Positions 8,804-19,838 of a stretch of DNA of 28,473 bases are shown here, piece after piece. The notes below the pieces were generated by a model. The model had not been told where the DNA came from. It did no database searches and saw nothing but the letters and a program-made list of their open reading frames with translations. Source of the DNA: a virus; UHGV virus genome UHGV-0135791, one strand, 5' to 3'. Each line of letters starts with the position of its first letter. The first letter of the stretch is position 1. A program made the position numbers and the translations under genes.

Positions 8804-9847
8804 ATGAGCTTACTTACATCTCTGATCAGCCATCAGATATGGCTACAACGCACCGCATCCGGTGAAGTGAAAGACCTTGCGCCGTTCATTCAGGAGATGC
8901 GCGACGAAATCAAACGACAGGTGCTGTTGTTCGGCGACGACGGGAGAAGCACCGCGCGACTGAATAAACTGTTACGCGACCTCGAAGAAGCACTGACAGG
9001 GCTTACTGGTGGCTGGCAAACGAAGCTGACAGAAGACCTTAAGGAGCTGGCGGCGTATGAGGCTGAGTGGAATGTGAAGACACTCACGGCTAACGTTAAT
9101 GCGGAATTTGTCACTCCGACCGCTGAGCAGGTGTGGTCTGCCGCAGTGTTTCAACCGCTGGCGTTAAGCGACAAGCCCGTTGATTTCACGAAGCTGATGG
9201 AAGGCTGGGGCGAAACAGAAGTTGCTCGCCTTGTAACCGGCGTTAAGATGGGTTTCGTACAAGGACAAACCACACGGCAGATTGCTAAGAATGTGGTGGG
9301 TGCTGGTGGGCTGGCTGACATCTCTGAACGCAACGCCGCTACGGTAATCCGCACTGCATTATCCCATGTATCGAACGAAGCCCGTAACGAGACGTACCGC
9401 CAGAACGATGACATCATCGAGAAATACGAATGGGTATCAACGCTGGACAGCCGTACCAGCACGATTTGCAGAGCCAGAGACGGAATGACGTGGGAAATCG
9501 GTAAAGGGCCAATGCCTCCAGCCCATCCGAATTGTAGGTCGTGTACAGCGCCCGTAATCAGTTCAGAGTTCGACTTCCTCGATAAAGGAGCGAAACGTGC
9601 AGCTAAGGGCGCGGACGGCGGTACTCAGGTAAGCGCAGACACCACCTACTACGAGTTCCTGAAACAACAACCGGCATGGTTTCAGGATGAAGCACTCGGT
9701 CCTGTTCGCGGTAAGATTTTCCGCAACAGCGGTATATCGCCGGAAGAGTTTCGCGTAATATCTGTAGATGGTTTCGGGAATCCGCTCACGCTTAAGCAGA
9801 TGGCGGAACTCGATAAACGTGTTGCTGATTATCTGAAAGGGGAATAA
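8804..9847 (+). CDS. head morphogenesis protein, Mu F / SPP1 gp7-like
   Basis: Motif TSTICRARDGMTWEIGKGPMPPAHPNCRSC typical of the Mu F-like minor head protein family; start may be 8771 or 8804 in the same frame. Confidence 0.75.
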   Translation: MSLLTSLISHQIWLQRTASGEVKDLAPFIQEMRDEIKRQVLLFGDDGRSTARLNKLLRDLEEALTGLTGGWQTKLTEDLKELAAYEAEWNVKTLTANVNAEFVTPTAEQVWSAAVFQPLALSDKPVDFTKLMEGWGETEVARLVTGVKMGFVQGQTTRQIAKNVVGAGGLADISERNAATVIRTALSHVSNEARNETYRQNDDIIEKYEWVSTLDSRTSTICRARDGMTWEIGKGPMPPAHPNCRSCTAPVISSEFDFLDKGAKRAAKGADGGTQVSADTTYYEFLKQQPAWFQDEALGPVRGKIFRNSGISPEEFRVISVDGFGNPLTLKQMAELDKRVADYLKGE

Positions 9848-10161
9848 TGATGGGCTTTTTCAAAGTAACTGATGTGCCGTCGCGTCGCGTAGTCCAGTAC
9901 GCCCGCGTGTCTGGCTCTGACGAGAACGTGGTGTTTATCGAAGATGAAAGTGTACTTGGTACACCTGTAGACGATATGCCGTTTGCGTATAAAACCGGTA
10001 TTGCGCTACCGGCGGCGGGTATGCTTTACGAGATTCCGTATCTGGCGGACGCTGGTGATGTGTATTTCTCTGCACAACCGCAGAACACCGAACTGGCAGA
10101 CGGCAGCGCAACTATCACTGTCGAGGTTAAGGCAGGCAAAGCGCCGTATACTCTGACCTAG
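9847..10161 (+). CDS. Ig-like-domain protein, truncated by an in-frame amber codon
   Basis: ATG 9847 after AAAGGGGA; ORF ends at TAG 10159-10161 inside an Ig-like fold (APYTLT*YKDGKEV). Confidence 0.6.
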   Translation: MMGFFKVTDVPSRRVVQYARVSGSDENVVFIEDESVLGTPVDDMPFAYKTGIALPAAGMLYEIPYLADAGDVYFSAQPQNTELADGSATITVEVKAGKAPYTLT

Positions 10162-10308
10162 TACAAAGACGGTAAGGAAGTGGTAAATGCCCCGGAAGAG
10201 GCTCTATCTCTGACGGTTAATGCTGTTGGCGAATACTTCGTTAAAGTCACCGATGCCGATGGTGTAGAGGCCGTGAGTAAAGCGGCGAAGGTCACTAAGC
10301 CAGAATGA
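10162..10308 (+). other. in-frame continuation after the amber codon, completing the Ig-like domain
   Basis: Same frame stays open 48 codons (YKDGKEVVNAPEEALSLTVNAVGEYFVKVTDADGVEAVSKAAKVTKPE) to TGA-TAA at 10306-10311. Confidence 0.55.
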
Positions 10309-10311
10309 TAA

Positions 10312-10342
10312 AAGGCCCCGTTATGGGGCCTTAGTTTTATTT
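10312..10342. terminator. bidirectional rho-independent terminator
   Basis: AAGGCCCC-GTTAT-GGGGCCTT hairpin with T-rich flanks on both strands, between convergent genes. Confidence 0.7.
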
Positions 10343-10858
10343 AAATCGCGCTGGCATTAGCACCATAAATGCAGTGTTTGAAAACGATATTTTGCATCCT
10401 CTGGTTTGGTCCTGGAAATCGAAACGAGCAATTTCATTTTTGTACGCCTTAGAAATCTTGTGCGCGTCTGCCAAGTAGGGCATGGCGAATCCTATGCTAT
10501 CAACTGCCCCCGGCGTGATGTGCGCCACACGTCGCCAGTCAGGAAATTTTCCGTCTACAACATCCACCGGAAGTGTACATATAAGCGCACAACTATCATC
10601 ATAGAAAGAAACACTGCTGATGTCATGGTCTACTTCCGCGTAGTTAAATTTAGAAGGCTCTCTCCCTTTTATGTCTATGAGAACCCCATTCTCAACGTTT
10701 GTCTTAACGTTGTCGCAGAACAATCTACGACCGTCCGTAGACACTATCAATCCTTCCGGGTCTATGTAAAAAGCATTAAAATAATAGCGCACATCATTTT
10801 TAGCTCTGCATATTTTTGCCCCTATATACGCAGGGAAAGTAATTACTGTAGTAACCAT
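10337..10858 (-). CDS. truncated DnaN (beta sliding clamp) homolog, domain II-like, 173 aa
   Basis: Segments [38 protein letters not shown] and C-terminal [11 protein letters not shown] parallel E. coli DnaN [45 protein letters not shown] and AAYVVMPMRL (from memory). Own promoter, GAGGAGGAG RBS, terminator; AT-rich relative to flanks. Confidence 0.55.
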   Translation of the reverse strand: [173 protein letters not shown]

Positions 10859-10886
10859 TTTAACTCCTCCTCGTTTCGATAACTGA

Positions 10887-10915
10887 ATAGTACCCTATTA
10901 TGTTGGTGTCTGCAA
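10887..10915 (-). promoter_or_regulatory. leftward sigma70-like promoter, TTGCAG-N17-TACTAT
   Basis: Read on the minus strand: TTGCAG acaccaacataataggg TACTAT tca; -10 region identical to promoters at 119-147 and 19703-19731. Confidence 0.5.
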
Positions 10916-10969
10916 ACTATTTGTTTACGTATTCCAGTTATTCCGCTCAATTGTAAATGTTGGAATAAA

Positions 10970-10981
10970 CTATTCGAATAG
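10970..10981. promoter_or_regulatory. perfect 12-bp palindrome CTATTCGAATAG, candidate operator
   Basis: Abuts the -35 of a rightward promoter-like site; half-site GAATAG/CTATTC also occurs within the conserved promoter block. Confidence 0.35.
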
Positions 10982-11010
10982 TTGACTTTTCACTAAAAAT
11001 ATGCTAAGCT
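10982..11010 (+). promoter_or_regulatory. possible rightward promoter, TTGACT-N17-TAAGCT
   Basis: Good -35 but weak -10. Confidence 0.3.
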
Positions 11011-11234
11011 CCACCTGAGCTTGTGAAGTATGAACAAGCGACCGCGGCGCGGGCAGGTAACGGAGCGGGACGTAAGTCCTGAGTGTAGTTACGCTGACGC
11101 GTTCGGAAGGGCCATACTCTATTGCTTGTGTAAAAAGTAACTGGTTTACTGAGATTACGCCGTTTCTATGTTTAAATGATAAGAACTAGCGCCCCGCTTT
11201 ATGGCGGGGCTTTACTTATCGAGAAAGGAGAAAC

Positions 11235-11621
11235 ATGAATCTTAAAGCAACTGTCGTAGCAGGAGCATGTTTCATCATCCTGGCCTACGCACACGGCATC
11301 TATCAGTATCGCAGCGGCTGGAACGAAGGCCGGGAGAATCTCGTTTCGCAGCAACAGCAGAAAGCGCAGGCTGAGTTAGCGAAGAAAACACAACGGCAGC
11401 AGCAGGAAGAATCAAAGGCCGCCGCTGCTGACAACGAAGGCAAGACGAAATCAGAGGTGATTACCCGTGAAGTCGTTAAGTACATTAAAACGCCTGGTCG
11501 CAGCGTGTGCACTTTTGACCCTGAGCGCGTGCAGCTCAAGTCCCGCGCCGTCGCAAACGCCAATTCCATCCCCGGATATGACGATGATGCAGCCGCCGTG
11601 CAAACTGGCGCCGCCAAGTAA
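11235..11621 (+). CDS. Rz: i-spanin (Rz-like)
   Basis: N-terminal TMD (VVAGACFIILAYAHGIY) followed by a Gln/Ala/Lys-rich periplasmic region; strong RBS AAAGGAGA; contains the start of an overlapping lipoprotein gene. Confidence 0.7.
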   Translation: MNLKATVVAGACFIILAYAHGIYQYRSGWNEGRENLVSQQQQKAQAELAKKTQRQQQEESKAAAADNEGKTKSEVITREVVKYIKTPGRSVCTFDPERVQLKSRAVANANSIPGYDDDAAAVQTGAAK

Positions 11622-11730
11622 CGACGCCGACGGGGATTTGGCTATCGACGTTCAGAATGCAGAATGTGCGCGGCAACTGAGACTGAAAGTGTTCATGTTG
11701 CAGGATTATGTGAGGAATATTCTGGAATAG
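11467..11730 (+). CDS. Rz1: o-spanin (Rz1-like outer membrane lipoprotein)
   Basis: GTG start after GAGGTGA, in the +1 frame inside Rz; signal peptide with lipobox LSAC; Pro-rich mature region; extends 109 nt past the Rz stop. Confidence 0.65.
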   Translation: MKSLSTLKRLVAACALLTLSACSSSPAPSQTPIPSPDMTMMQPPCKLAPPSNDADGDLAIDVQNAECARQLRLKVFMLQDYVRNILE

Positions 11731-11812
11731 TTGCCTTGCAGGTTGGAATAATTTATTCTTGACATGTAAATCCGGGTGGCCCGGGTTCCAACGTCCAGGG
11801 GACATACTGACT

Positions 11813-18085: not shown

Positions 18086-18314
18086 ACTCATCAATATTAC
18101 TCCTGTACTCCCGTAACTTCTCCAGGCTTTCGATTGCTTCTGCCAAGTCGGTTCCCGTGTCTTTGTGCCCGCGAAGGCCCATACACAATAGCTTCTTCAA
18201 CGCGTGCTGTAGCGCAGGGTCGCGTATATCGAAGGCGCGGAGAACATCGTAAACGTCTACTGTCATAGTGCTGCCGTGAATGTTTGTCATTGTGCGGTTG
18301 TATTTTGAAGTCAT
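18084..18314 (-). CDS. DUF3310-like small phage protein, 76 aa
   Basis: Motif PALQHALKKLLCMGLRGHKD...DLAEAIESLEKL matches the A.KYL.R.G.K...DL.KA..YL pattern recalled for DUF3310. Confidence 0.5.
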   Translation of the reverse strand: MTSKYNRTMTNIHGSTMTVDVYDVLRAFDIRDPALQHALKKLLCMGLRGHKDTGTDLAEAIESLEKLREYRSNIDE

Positions 18315-19441
18315 CCCAGCATCTCCGGTGAAATAGTTAAACGTGCGACCTCGCCGTATTCAGCGCTATAAGTAATTACGTTTGCACTACGGCCTGACAT
18401 CCATCCGCCGCGCGAGGCGTAGGCGTCTTTAGCCGCTAAGGTGCGGTGTTGCTCAACAACCATGTTACGGCTTTCTACAATCTTCTGGTGGTGCAGGTGA
18501 CCCACGTGGGCATAACTGTAGACACTCTCGCCGAACGCTTTACGGAACTTGGCAATCATTACTGGCTCAATAGCGTCGAATCGTGCTTTATGCCCGTGAT
18601 GGAAGAACAGTGTCGTTTTGCCGTGTTGCACCATCTTGTAAACATCCGGTGACGTATCGACAATCACTCGGCTGTCGTTTGAGTATAAAGTCGTGAACAT
18701 TTCCGCCAGCCATACAGACCCTACAGGGTCGTGGTTCCCCTGCACGATAAGCAAGCGAACGGTTTTATGTTTAACCAGCGCCATATCTACAACACGGCGG
18801 ACCATACGAATCATGTAGCGTACAAGTTTCTGATAGCGCGTGTCAGCGTCCAACACATGACGTGACTCAGGTGTAACCGCGTCCAGACTATCGAAGTGTG
18901 CGAAGTCGCCCAGCAGGTTAATAACTCCTGTCCCGGCATCCGGTGCTTTCTGGAATGCCGCATCGAACCAGCGGGAGAACAGGTCTTCCGCAATCTTCAT
19001 GTCCCAGTCGTCGCCGCTCTCGTCGGCCCATGCCAGCATACCGAGATGGAAATCGGATACCGTGTAAAGATTGAGTAGCTTGTCGTCGCGTTTAGCGCGA
19101 ACGGCTTTAACAGGTGCAACGGGTGTAATCTCTGACCTCATGCCTTCGATTACGGCTTTCATCAACTCTATCTGACGTTCGGCGTCAGTATCGGTCTTAA
19201 CCCATTGCAACTTAGTGTTGCCGAACTCGTCCACAAGTGACGACGTGCCTTTAATTTTGTAGCCGTCCGGGACAAGGTGGCTAACGTCGCGCCCGTGGCC
19301 TACGCCTTTCTTAGCCAGCTTCGCTTTACGGATGCGAATAACGCGGTCTGAGATGCCATATTTACGGGCTATATCGATAGTTTTAACTCCGGCGTTCAAT
19401 TCTTCCTGTAACTGTTCGTCGGTTATTTTCTTCCCGGCCAT
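18311..19441 (-). CDS. N-terminal HTH domain fused to a calcineurin/Mre11-like metallophosphoesterase, 376 aa
   Basis: HTH-like LNAGVKTIDIARKYGISDRVIRIRK; phosphoesterase motifs VSDFHLG, LLGDFAHFD, QGNHD, FHHGH and HVGHLHH in canonical order. Confidence 0.75.
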   Translation of the reverse strand: MAGKKITDEQLQEELNAGVKTIDIARKYGISDRVIRIRKAKLAKKGVGHGRDVSHLVPDGYKIKGTSSLVDEFGNTKLQWVKTDTDAERQIELMKAVIEGMRSEITPVAPVKAVRAKRDDKLLNLYTVSDFHLGMLAWADESGDDWDMKIAEDLFSRWFDAAFQKAPDAGTGVINLLGDFAHFDSLDAVTPESRHVLDADTRYQKLVRYMIRMVRRVVDMALVKHKTVRLLIVQGNHDPVGSVWLAEMFTTLYSNDSRVIVDTSPDVYKMVQHGKTTLFFHHGHKARFDAIEPVMIAKFRKAFGESVYSYAHVGHLHHQKIVESRNMVVEQHRTLAAKDAYASRGGWMSGRSANVITYSAEYGEVARLTISPEMLG

Positions 19442-19479
19442 GCTTACCTCCTCGTGTTTAGGATTTGTCCTATACTAGC

Positions 19480-19671
19480 TCACTTCTCTTTGACATTCGA
19501 GTTGCACGCCCAGATTAAGATAAATACCCACGGCAGCAGAATCCAACCAAGAAACAGATTGGCCATGAATATCGCCAGCTTTGCTTTATGGTTGCGGAAA
19601 TAGGCAACTAAAAAAGGCGTAAAGTACGCGAGCAGTGCAAACAGGATTAAGGAAACTGGTAAACTGGACAT
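19480..19671 (-). CDS. superinfection immunity (Imm-like) membrane protein, 63 aa
   Basis: Two TMDs with pattern FLVAYFRNHKAKLAIFMANLFLGWILLPWVFILIWA, resembling the Imm_superinfect family (from memory); first gene after the leftward promoter. Confidence 0.55.
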   Translation of the reverse strand: MSSLPVSLILFALLAYFTPFLVAYFRNHKAKLAIFMANLFLGWILLPWVFILIWACNSNVKEK

Positions 19672-19702
19672 TTTAAACCCCCTTCATTGTTGGTGTAAGT
19701 GA

Positions 19703-19731
19703 ATAGTACCCTATTATATTGGGGTGCGCAA
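19703..19731 (-). promoter_or_regulatory. leftward sigma70-like promoter, TTGCGC-N17-TACTAT
   Basis: Minus strand reads TTGCGC accccaatataataggg TACTAT tca; shares the AATAGGGTACTATTCA block. Confidence 0.5.
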
Positions 19732-19838
19732 GTAATGTGATAGAATAATTTTGCGCCTAGTGTCGCACACGAAAAGCGGGTGGTTCCCGCCTGGCGCAAC
19801 ACCATCAACCAGTAACCTCTTAACCAAAGGATTAAAGA

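Follow-up and report, generated by a model that had tools for sequence, protein, structure and literature searches.

The window, meaning the whole 28,473-nt stretch of DNA that was analysed (UHGV-0135791), belongs to a Kagunavirus-like lytic phage of the Guernseyvirinae. Its positions 10300-11700 match Kagunavirus phages at 91-94%, and searches of complete E. coli genomes returned no match to the window and zero copies of the leader described below. The intergenic gap under study (10859-11234, 376 bp) runs from the ATG of a minus-strand gene encoding a 173-aa protein to the ATG of Rz at 11235, and an equivalent gap of 220-490 bp is found in the same place in relatives. The scaffold and major capsid genes come after Rz1, with another hairpin between Rz1 and the scaffold gene and a terminator 3' of the capsid gene; no tRNA or tmRNA genes were found in the window. 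The gap had been described, in the original prediction, as a hub of divergent promoters with a palindrome, a terminator-like hairpin and a weak ORF, and all of the elements listed there are present in the sequence. The genes and signals that border the gap are given here with the leftward promoter.

10312-10332, both strands: bidirectional terminator that ends the upstream head-gene block
10337-10858, minus strand: gene for the 173-aa protein, matching phrog_3007 and annotated variously as a sliding clamp or RusA-like protein
10880-10915, minus strand: leftward early-type promoter, with -35 TTGCAG (10915-10910), N17 and -10 TACTAT (10892-10887)
11235-11621, plus strand: Rz i-spanin gene, matching the phrog_2536 Rz-like spanin (E = 4.5e-57), in agreement with the annotations of relatives
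11467-11730, plus strand: Rz1 o-spanin gene, overlapping Rz, with the lipobox LSAC

The leftward promoter was found where it had been claimed, as TTGCAG-N17-TACTAT, and sits within a member of a 36-nt repeat family, TGAATAGTACCCTATTAT. Three copies of this repeat occur in the window (10880-10915, 19696-19731 and, reversed, 135-169), each placed 22-25 nt before an SD and ATG, and seven copies are found in the complete genome of phage Schulenburg, one of them upstream of cro. The consensus is already in print as the PHIRE repeat of phage fBC-Eco01 (PMC9825357). Because the repeat has further copies in the window and in a relative, and its consensus has been published, the leftward promoter is one member of the phage's early-promoter family, serving the inserted cargo gene at 10337-10858. 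Phages that carry the type B leader defined below have neither the cargo gene nor the leftward promoter. The leftward gene is likewise missing from the Jerseyviruses Shelanagig and Ent1, in which the terminator of a Hoc-like gene is followed in order by TATTCC repeats, the rightward promoter, the leader and Rz, and in other relatives the place of the cargo gene is taken by a small ORF or an endonuclease VII gene. Leftward promoter and gene together look like an insertion, beside a rightward promoter and leader that appear to be the ancestral core. As a single divergent hub the gap does not hold together: it is a composite, and in type B the same promoter and leader stand right after the upstream terminator with nothing leftward.

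The rightward promoter and its half-site array

Between the leftward promoter and the expected start of the rightward transcript lie the following elements.

10930-10981, unstranded: array of operator-like TATTC/GAATA half-sites upstream of the rightward -35
10930-35 and 10939-44, unstranded: direct repeats TATTCC, part of the half-site array
10962-75, unstranded: inverted repeat GGAATA-AAC-TATTC, overlapping the palindrome
10970-10981, unstranded: 12-bp perfect palindrome CTATTCGAATAG, pointed out in the original prediction
10982-11010, plus strand: sigma-70 extended -10 promoter, with TTGACT (10982-87), N14, TG (11002-03, as TGc) and TAAGCT (11005-10)

The TTGACT-N17-TAAGCT site is thus present as predicted, and it is conserved; the TG at 11002-03 had been overlooked. 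The -35 to -10 spacing is 17 nt, and the start site is expected at ~11016-11018. The pattern T[TAG]GA[CT]T-N14-TGn-TAnnCT was recovered at 61 of the 84 loci first scanned and at 92/132 once metagenome loci were included, with the TG of the extended -10 invariant and the base after it varying freely. A simple sigma-70 scan did not list this promoter because its -10 matches at only 3/6 positions; the case for it is made instead by the conservation of the -35, the spacing, the TGn and the -10 across loci. The promoter is predicted to drive the leader at 11011-11234 into Rz and is probably regulated.

Upstream of the -35, the layout TATTCC-N3-TATTCC ... GGAATA-N3/4-TATTC is shared by leader types A, B and C and is present in 87/132 loci. 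The exact form GGAATA-N3-TATTC occurs only twice in the window, the second time at 11745-58, just 5' of the scaffold gene, and only twice in a whole relative genome. The palindrome to which attention had been drawn is indeed perfect and lies at 10970-10981, but it is no rarer than chance, as the window holds three perfect 12-mer palindromes where shuffles give 6.8 +/- 2.5, and only 63/132 related loci have it in exact form. What is conserved instead is the inverted repeat GGAATA-N3-TATTC together with the two direct TATTCC repeats, and we infer that a dedicated regulator protein may bind this half-site array, with the early region's small HTH proteins as candidates.

Structure of the leader RNA

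For comparison, 132 upstream regions were gathered from IMG/VR, metagenomes and GenBank (84 before the metagenome loci were added), and five leader types were found among them.

Type A: Kagunavirus and some Jerseyvirus
Type B: most Jerseyvirus
Type C: phiEap-2-like
Type D: Cornellvirus-like
Type E: Serratia-like (Tsm2)

In the phage collection, a type A leader was present in 191 records and a type B leader in 268. Across 177 phage records the interval keeps 94-98% identity, even in Salmonella phages in which that of the Rz protein falls to 66-78%. Alignments of all types by MAFFT and RNAalifold were unusable, so within-type alignments and covariance models were used; of the alignments, A4, A7 and A9 are biased towards the structure through having been fitted to the models, whereas A3 and A8 were not fitted.

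The leader (11011-11234, ~220 nt) comprises a 5' domain at 11011-11116, a linker and a 3' hairpin at 11162-11234. Structure prediction, which the original prediction had proposed as a check, gave -78.1 kcal/mol (z = -2.98) on the plus strand and -58.3 kcal/mol (z = -1.85) on the minus strand, and covariation was seen in both domains. Because the conserved G-U pairs are strand-specific, the plus strand, that of the rightward transcript, is the strand that folds. The proposal of a functional rightward RNA of roughly 200 nt ahead of Rz is borne out in this respect, the candidate RNA being non-coding, ~200-220 nt long and marked by compensatory changes. The features of the 5' part are as follows.

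11011-11116, plus strand: 5' domain, the one match to model R1 in the window (135 bits)
11019-24 paired with 11034-39, plus strand: P1, a hairpin at the extreme 5' end
11042-44 and 11046-51 paired with 11098-11103 and 11104-06, plus strand: P2, a long-range helix closing the P3-P4 stack
11054-61 paired with 11088-92 and 11094-96, plus strand: P3, stacked within P2
11067-71 paired with 11076-80, plus strand: P4, with a GUAA tetraloop
11104-13, plus strand: invariant motif CGGAAGGGCC at the end of the 5' domain
11117-11151, plus strand: linker, with a conserved CUAUUG (11119-24) and a variable small hairpin
11136-40 (AGUAA) paired with 11146-50 (UUACU), plus strand: linker hairpin, partly deleted or replaced in leaders L036 and L107, its outer pair not kept
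11030-11140, plus strand: 36-codon ORF with its ATG in the P1 loop, judged spurious

Compensatory changes in the 5' domain are already visible in single-lineage variants within type A. On the plain MAFFT alignment A3, with a structure derived by hand, 96.8% of cells are paired and four pairs have changed on both sides. When types A and B are aligned by R1, 98.1% of cells are paired and both-side changes affect 15/28 pairs, against 0-3 in slid controls, rising to 16/28 on addition of the early-region paralogues described below; the P2 pair 38:93, for instance, takes the forms C-G, U-A and A-U in separate lineages. A pseudoknot between AGUAUG of the P1 loop and CAUACU (11113-18), which appears in the MFE fold, was rejected because alignment column 109 varies without compensation. 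The CUAUUG of the linker is common to types A and B and to the early-region copies. A reading frame opening at UUG 11122, ~10 nt past an SD-like GGAAGGG, is found in types A and B, with its start codon missing in type C. The fold of the 5' domain is not kept in types C-E; neither R1 nor the 3'-domain model R2 detects types C, D and E, and no fold common to the whole subfamily was found.

The weak 36-codon ORF of the original prediction is present at 11030-11140 but is not conserved. The annotations of Schulenburg, Bas70 and others list it as a hypothetical protein, and it is intact in most near-identical type A leaders; across the 45 distinct type A leaders, however, the frame is truncated to 9-17 codons or frameshifted in L012, L022, L023, L031 and L035, lengthened to 48 codons in L026 and 40 in L042, and deprived of its start codon in L036 and L107, so that frame disruption or start loss affects 9/45. 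The substitutions are mostly non-synonymous, the variation tracks base-pairing and not codons, and the ORF is absent from types B-E. Its product has no match in Pfam or PHROG, and no good SD precedes it. That a 36-aa protein is encoded here is extremely improbable.

The 3' part of the leader reaches into the ribosome-binding site of Rz.

11152-11237, plus strand: 3' domain, with an irregular hairpin at 11162-11234 of 26 bp over 73 nt
11162-67 paired with 11229-34, plus strand: P6a, pairing the spacer and part of the SD
11171-73 paired with 11224-26, plus strand: P6b, pairing at the SD
11177-83 paired with 11215-21, plus strand: P6c, its 3' strand forming part of the hairpin tail
11187-89 paired with 11212-14, plus strand: P6d, its 3' strand forming part of the hairpin tail
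11191-97 (GCCCCGC) paired with 11204-10 (GCGGGGC), plus strand: P6e, the apex and the "terminator" hairpin of the original prediction
11225-30, plus strand: SD of Rz, AAGGAG, ahead of the ATG at 11235

Model R2 has one plus-strand match in the window at 115 bits; its reverse-strand score is 19 bits. Across types A and B, 98% of cells in the 3' hairpin are paired and both-side changes are found in 6/26 pairs, where slid controls give 0-2. A 13-bp hairpin stands at the equivalent place in types C and D, with both-side changes in 9/13 pairs on a plain MAFFT alignment, and these types also retain a conserved apical CGCUUUAnGGC and a pyrimidine strand that could pair with the SD; in type E leaders (Serratia-like, Tsm2) the SD lies outside the long-range helix. 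Together, P6a and P6b pair the spacer and 4/6 SD bases of Rz, and the basal helices around the SD are A/U-rich. The predicted accessibility of the Rz RBS is 0.27, the third lowest of 16 genes, with two operon-internal genes lower and most structural genes in the window at 0.4-0.67; occlusion of the Rz RBS is thus predicted to be only moderate.

The apical hairpin had been taken for a terminator. The hairpin itself stands, with coordinates one base away from those predicted (11191-97/11204-10, not 11192-11211), and it forms a GC-rich stem-loop at 11191-11210 with a 7-8 bp stem and seven G-C pairs, which together with its tail UUUACUUAU passes a lax terminator-like scan. Its reading as a terminator is not supported in the form proposed. 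The T-rich tail TTTACTTAT is the P6c/P6d strand, and the tail UUUACUUAUCG is likewise the 3' strand of the covarying helices P6d and P6c. No U-run is conserved, the corresponding tail being UUAGCGUAU in type B and UGUUACG in types C/D, and the two independent annotations of Schulenburg and Ent1 call the neighbouring terminators and omit this hairpin. Because the tail forms one side of a helix, shows no U-tract in types B-D and is not annotated as a terminator, attenuation does not appear to be the conserved function of the hairpin, although some termination in type A may occur. Inspection and a non-exhaustive look at MFE and centroid folds revealed no conserved alternative (antiterminator) pairing in types A and B. 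Since the stem reaches the SD of Rz, control of translation or of processing would fit better than attenuation; with 26 pairs over 73 nt, P6 provides the irregular double-stranded RNA of at least ~20 bp looked for in an RNase III hairpin. Two further resemblances were set aside. The stem CCCCGC/GCGGGG resembles the E. coli type I-E CRISPR repeat, but the match is confined to the stem, the loop and flanks differ and the type B stem changes with compensation, and the likeness was judged a coincidence; the similarity of the apical loop GCUUUA, and of CUCUUUAA in the early copy, to boxA is too weak and inconsistent.

Exchange and duplication of the promoter and leader

Compared with SETP13, the window is 90-100% identical over 10915-11214 and 62-92% identical in the genes beyond. 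Shelanagig has SETP13-like flanks and carries a type B leader instead, at 42-65% identity. Much of the high identity of the interval reflects a block exchanged as a unit.

The promoter and 5' domain also occur a second time in Schulenburg, at 37878-38013, where the R1 site (37907-38013) scores 58 bits with E = 2e-11 and is preceded by the near-identical promoter TTGACTTTTACTAAGAAATATGGTAAGCT without the operator array. This copy lies in a gap of ~470 bp, with a leftward HTH gene on one side and the rightward early genes on the other, at a position corresponding to ~1 kb ahead of the start of the window, and annotators have put tiny minus-strand ORFs over it. A second site was found in ~43/181 records. 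In the six early copies that were fetched, the differences in P2-P4 are compensated changes, the 3' part is different and no RBS adjoins. R2 has a single plus-strand site per genome, and phages of type B have one copy only of the 5' domain. Because the leader is exchanged between phages and is duplicated in the early region of some Kagunaviruses, the promoter and 5' domain make up a portable, selected module with a role not specific to Rz; the early paralogue has no adjacent RBS, so that a translational role of the 5' domain is excluded.

Candidate functions and comparison with known systems

The favoured reading, which we hold to be about evenly balanced between right and wrong, is that the leader is a cis-acting structured 5' UTR of the Rz/Rz1 message made from the rightward promoter, with a 3' stem that covers the Rz RBS. 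The scaffold and capsid genes further along probably share it as their 5' UTR. The rightward extended -10 promoter, with its operator-like sites, would produce a non-coding leader of ~220 nt, and the 3' stem would occlude the RBS, holding down or gating the translation of Rz, or would alternatively serve for RNase III-type processing or for stabilisation. The 5' domain and the single-stranded CGGAAGGGCC would act in cis on the nascent transcript through stability, elongation/readthrough or factor binding. Termination at the hairpin would be a side effect specific to type A, and the leftward promoter a separate early promoter that arrived with the cargo gene.

A different role for the 5' domain, as a processive antitermination RNA that binds RNA polymerase or a factor and reads through the downstream hairpins and terminator, is suggested by analogy with the put RNA of HK022, an RNA of ~70 nt with two stem-loops that binds the beta' zinc-binding domain of RNA polymerase (PMC9378689). 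The location is that of a put element: the 5' domain begins ~2-8 nt past the expected start, with P1 opening ~2-4 nt past it, always occurs with the same promoter, and stands at the head of a long operon with terminator-like hairpins downstream. The two paralogous copies in some Kagunaviruses, each heading a rightward unit, recall putL/putR (PMC9378689), and a third rightward restart in the window also consists of a promoter followed by a structured RNA (int-alpA). The size and fold are not those of put, however, as the 5' domain has 106 nt and consists of the P1 hairpin and a P3/P4 stack closed by P2. The domain is, moreover, not kept in types C-E despite closely related host polymerases, and the second copy is confined to the minority of records noted above and never occurs in type B phages. 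We regard this explanation as unlikely, and still more doubtful is its fuller form, in which the 5' domain (P1-P4 and the invariant motif) would be a new fold of antitermination RNA, protein-independent or dependent on a phage factor, that licenses long rightward operons, with the 3' stem as a built-in test terminator and RBS gate.

It is also unlikely that the transcript is a stand-alone small RNA of ~200 nt, its 3' end set by termination or processing at the GC hairpin, that acts in trans through the invariant motif and the CUAUUG that follows it. The hairpin and its tail do pass the terminator-like scan in the window, the invariant unpaired motifs look like seed regions and the early paralogue adjoins no RBS, but types B-D have no U-tract, the tail of the hairpin and the Rz RBS share one covarying stem, and the leader always abuts Rz; matches to the reverse complement of the invariant motif occur in the window at chance level, with no good target among them. 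The arrangement of a structured 5' domain ahead of an RBS-sequestering 3' stem would suit a riboswitch-like or thermosensor leader, in which the 5' domain would respond to a ligand, a protein or temperature and the Rz RBS would be exposed or concealed by the 3' stem, and this is consistent both with the A/U-rich helices around the SD and with a conserved purine motif in types C and D that is complementary to the pyrimidine anti-SD strand. Such a sensor is nonetheless quite improbable, given that the non-exhaustive look at types A and B found no conserved alternative pairing, that the 5' domain occurs without the platform in the early copy, and that the 5' fold varies among types and matches no Rfam aptamer. 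Very improbable, finally, is a purely DNA-level element (an operator, an origin or a recombination site) with no functional RNA: although the half-site array and palindrome lie upstream of the promoter and the leader block is exchanged by recombination, the compensatory changes that keep G-U pairs are strand-specific, R2 scores far higher on the plus than on the minus strand, the plus strand folds better and the palindrome is at chance level.

A scan of the window at Rfam 15 gathering thresholds returned int-alpA, outside the region, as its sole match. Within the region wcaG scored best, with 19.3 bits where its threshold is 42 (E = 0.41), and leader types B-E gave no match at E <= 0.1. In the searchable literature, no description of the leader RNA and no transcript mapping for these phages was found, and the K1B4 time-course RNA-seq paper contains no analysis of promoters or non-coding RNA. 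Since no leader type matches Rfam 15 and no description was found, the leader represents a structured RNA family that is new but of a familiar kind, that of phage 5' leaders or promoter-proximal RNAs. Kagunavirus and Jerseyvirus are common phages of E. coli and Salmonella in which gene regulation is essentially unstudied, and the analysis defines for them a structured RNA family, so far unannotated, which has a conserved promoter of its own where the late operon restarts. Several deposited hypothetical proteins are spurious, namely the 36-aa ORF and, in the early region, the tiny minus-strand ORFs that overlie the second copy, and the helix coordinates give concrete, testable models. Control of elongation or termination by the 5' module, if real, would add a new case to RNA-based transcription control in phages, and if antitermination were true, the module would make up a second put-like class of RNA, spread over several hundred sequenced phage genomes; if only spanin translation or transcript stability is tuned, it would be an ordinary leader that is unusually well supported.

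Several known systems resemble the favoured reading in part. With putL/putR the leader shares a promoter-proximal structured RNA, paralogues in one genome and a place at the head of multi-terminator operons, and it would likewise act in cis; it differs in topology and in having the second copy in a subset of genomes only. RBS-occluding leaders that are processed by RNase III include the lambda N leader and the early and late processing sites of T7. The likeness to these lies in a long irregular hairpin with internal loops that stands just before the next gene and partly holds its RBS. The window itself contains one RNA for comparison.

19750-19814, plus strand: int-alpA RNA (RF02996), the second structured RNA in the window, starting at a rightward extended -10 promoter

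Like the leader, int-alpA begins at an extended -10 promoter and precedes a late gene, that of the tail assembly chaperone, although its sequence and fold are unrelated. In the late leader of lambda, pR' gives rise to the 194-nt 6S RNA, which ends at the tR' terminator ahead of S-R-Rz-Rz1; this is a true terminator, and readthrough is driven by Q loaded at the promoter. No equivalent of Q or qut was identified for the leader described here. The two share the succession of a promoter, a non-coding RNA of ~200 nt and a hairpin directly before lysis genes and the late operon, whereas the hairpin of the present leader has no conserved U-tract and lies within a stem that covers the RBS, and the RNA is under strong structural selection.

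Exchange of the promoter-leader block and its early-region paralogue

The Jerseyviruses SETP13 (locus L003) and Shelanagig (L004) carry similar flanking genes but differ in leader type, A in the former and B in the latter. It follows that the promoter-leader block is swapped between phages as a cassette; on the coordinates of the window, the breakpoints fall close to 10915 and within about 11234-11394. Some Kagunaviruses also have a paralogue of the promoter and 5' domain in their early region, at 37878-38150 in Schulenburg (L150) and likewise at loci L151-L156. In the 3' part of this paralogue, which a GUUGCCGU/ACGGCAAC helix closes, lies a CTCA/CACT microsatellite whose length varies (L151 versus L152 versus L153). 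Tiny annotated minus-strand ORFs overlap the paralogue and are probably spurious.

Embedded leftward genes and a second hub

The rightward structural module of the window contains embedded leftward cargo genes driven by early-type promoters. A second "hub" was noted at 19442-19838, and the Hoc-like decoration gene appears split into two ORFs within 9847-10308.

Features of the structural module (window coordinates)
9847-10161: Hoc-like ORF, first part, 104 aa; matches phrog_3945 over profile positions 1-103 out of 152
10180-10308: Hoc-like ORF, second part, 42 aa
10337-10858, minus strand: cargo gene, clamp/RusA-like, phrog_3007
18311-19441, minus strand: cargo gene, metallophosphoesterase, 376 aa, phrog_704
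19696-19731, minus strand: copy of the leftward early-promoter repeat, upstream of the small minus-strand ORF that it serves (start 19672)
Within 19442-19838, plus strand: promoter TTGGGG-N17(TGa)-TAGAAT, overlapping the repeat copy
19750-19814: int-alpA RNA match (Rfam RF02996), score 36.7 bits (threshold 35.8)

The int-alpA match directly follows the rightward promoter, lies just ahead of the tail assembly chaperone gene (19839) and is without the U-run usual in the RF02996 family. In the Cornellvirus PhiSTP1, the phrog_704 gene adjoins the Rz leader directly to its left, and its product shows a weak GerE/HTH signal at the N-terminus. Relatives encode a single Hoc-like gene of ~152 aa; the split in the window could stem from a frameshift or a sequencing error, or could mark a pseudogene.

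Sites for the putative regulator

The gap between Rz1 and the scaffold gene (11714-11812) contains two direct GGAATA repeats and the window's only other exact GGAATA-N3-TATTC (11745-58). Next come TTGACA, the hairpin CCGGG-UGG-CCCGG and an RBS region that is highly conserved. Even Cornellvirus and phiEap-2-like phages, which have different Rz leaders, keep this block, and it appears to be a further site for the putative regulator of the Rz-leader promoter. At the type E loci of Serratia-like relatives (L061, L063-L067, L071, L073, L121, L122 and L126-L128), repeated and inverted ACTCGCAA/TTGCGAGT sites surround a TATAAAT -10 in place of the TATTCC sites, and a long-range GGUUGCUGCCGUU/AACGGCAGCAA helix lies immediately ahead of the Rz SD. 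Type E shares its layout with the other leader types but has a different RNA, and its putative regulator would differ in specificity.
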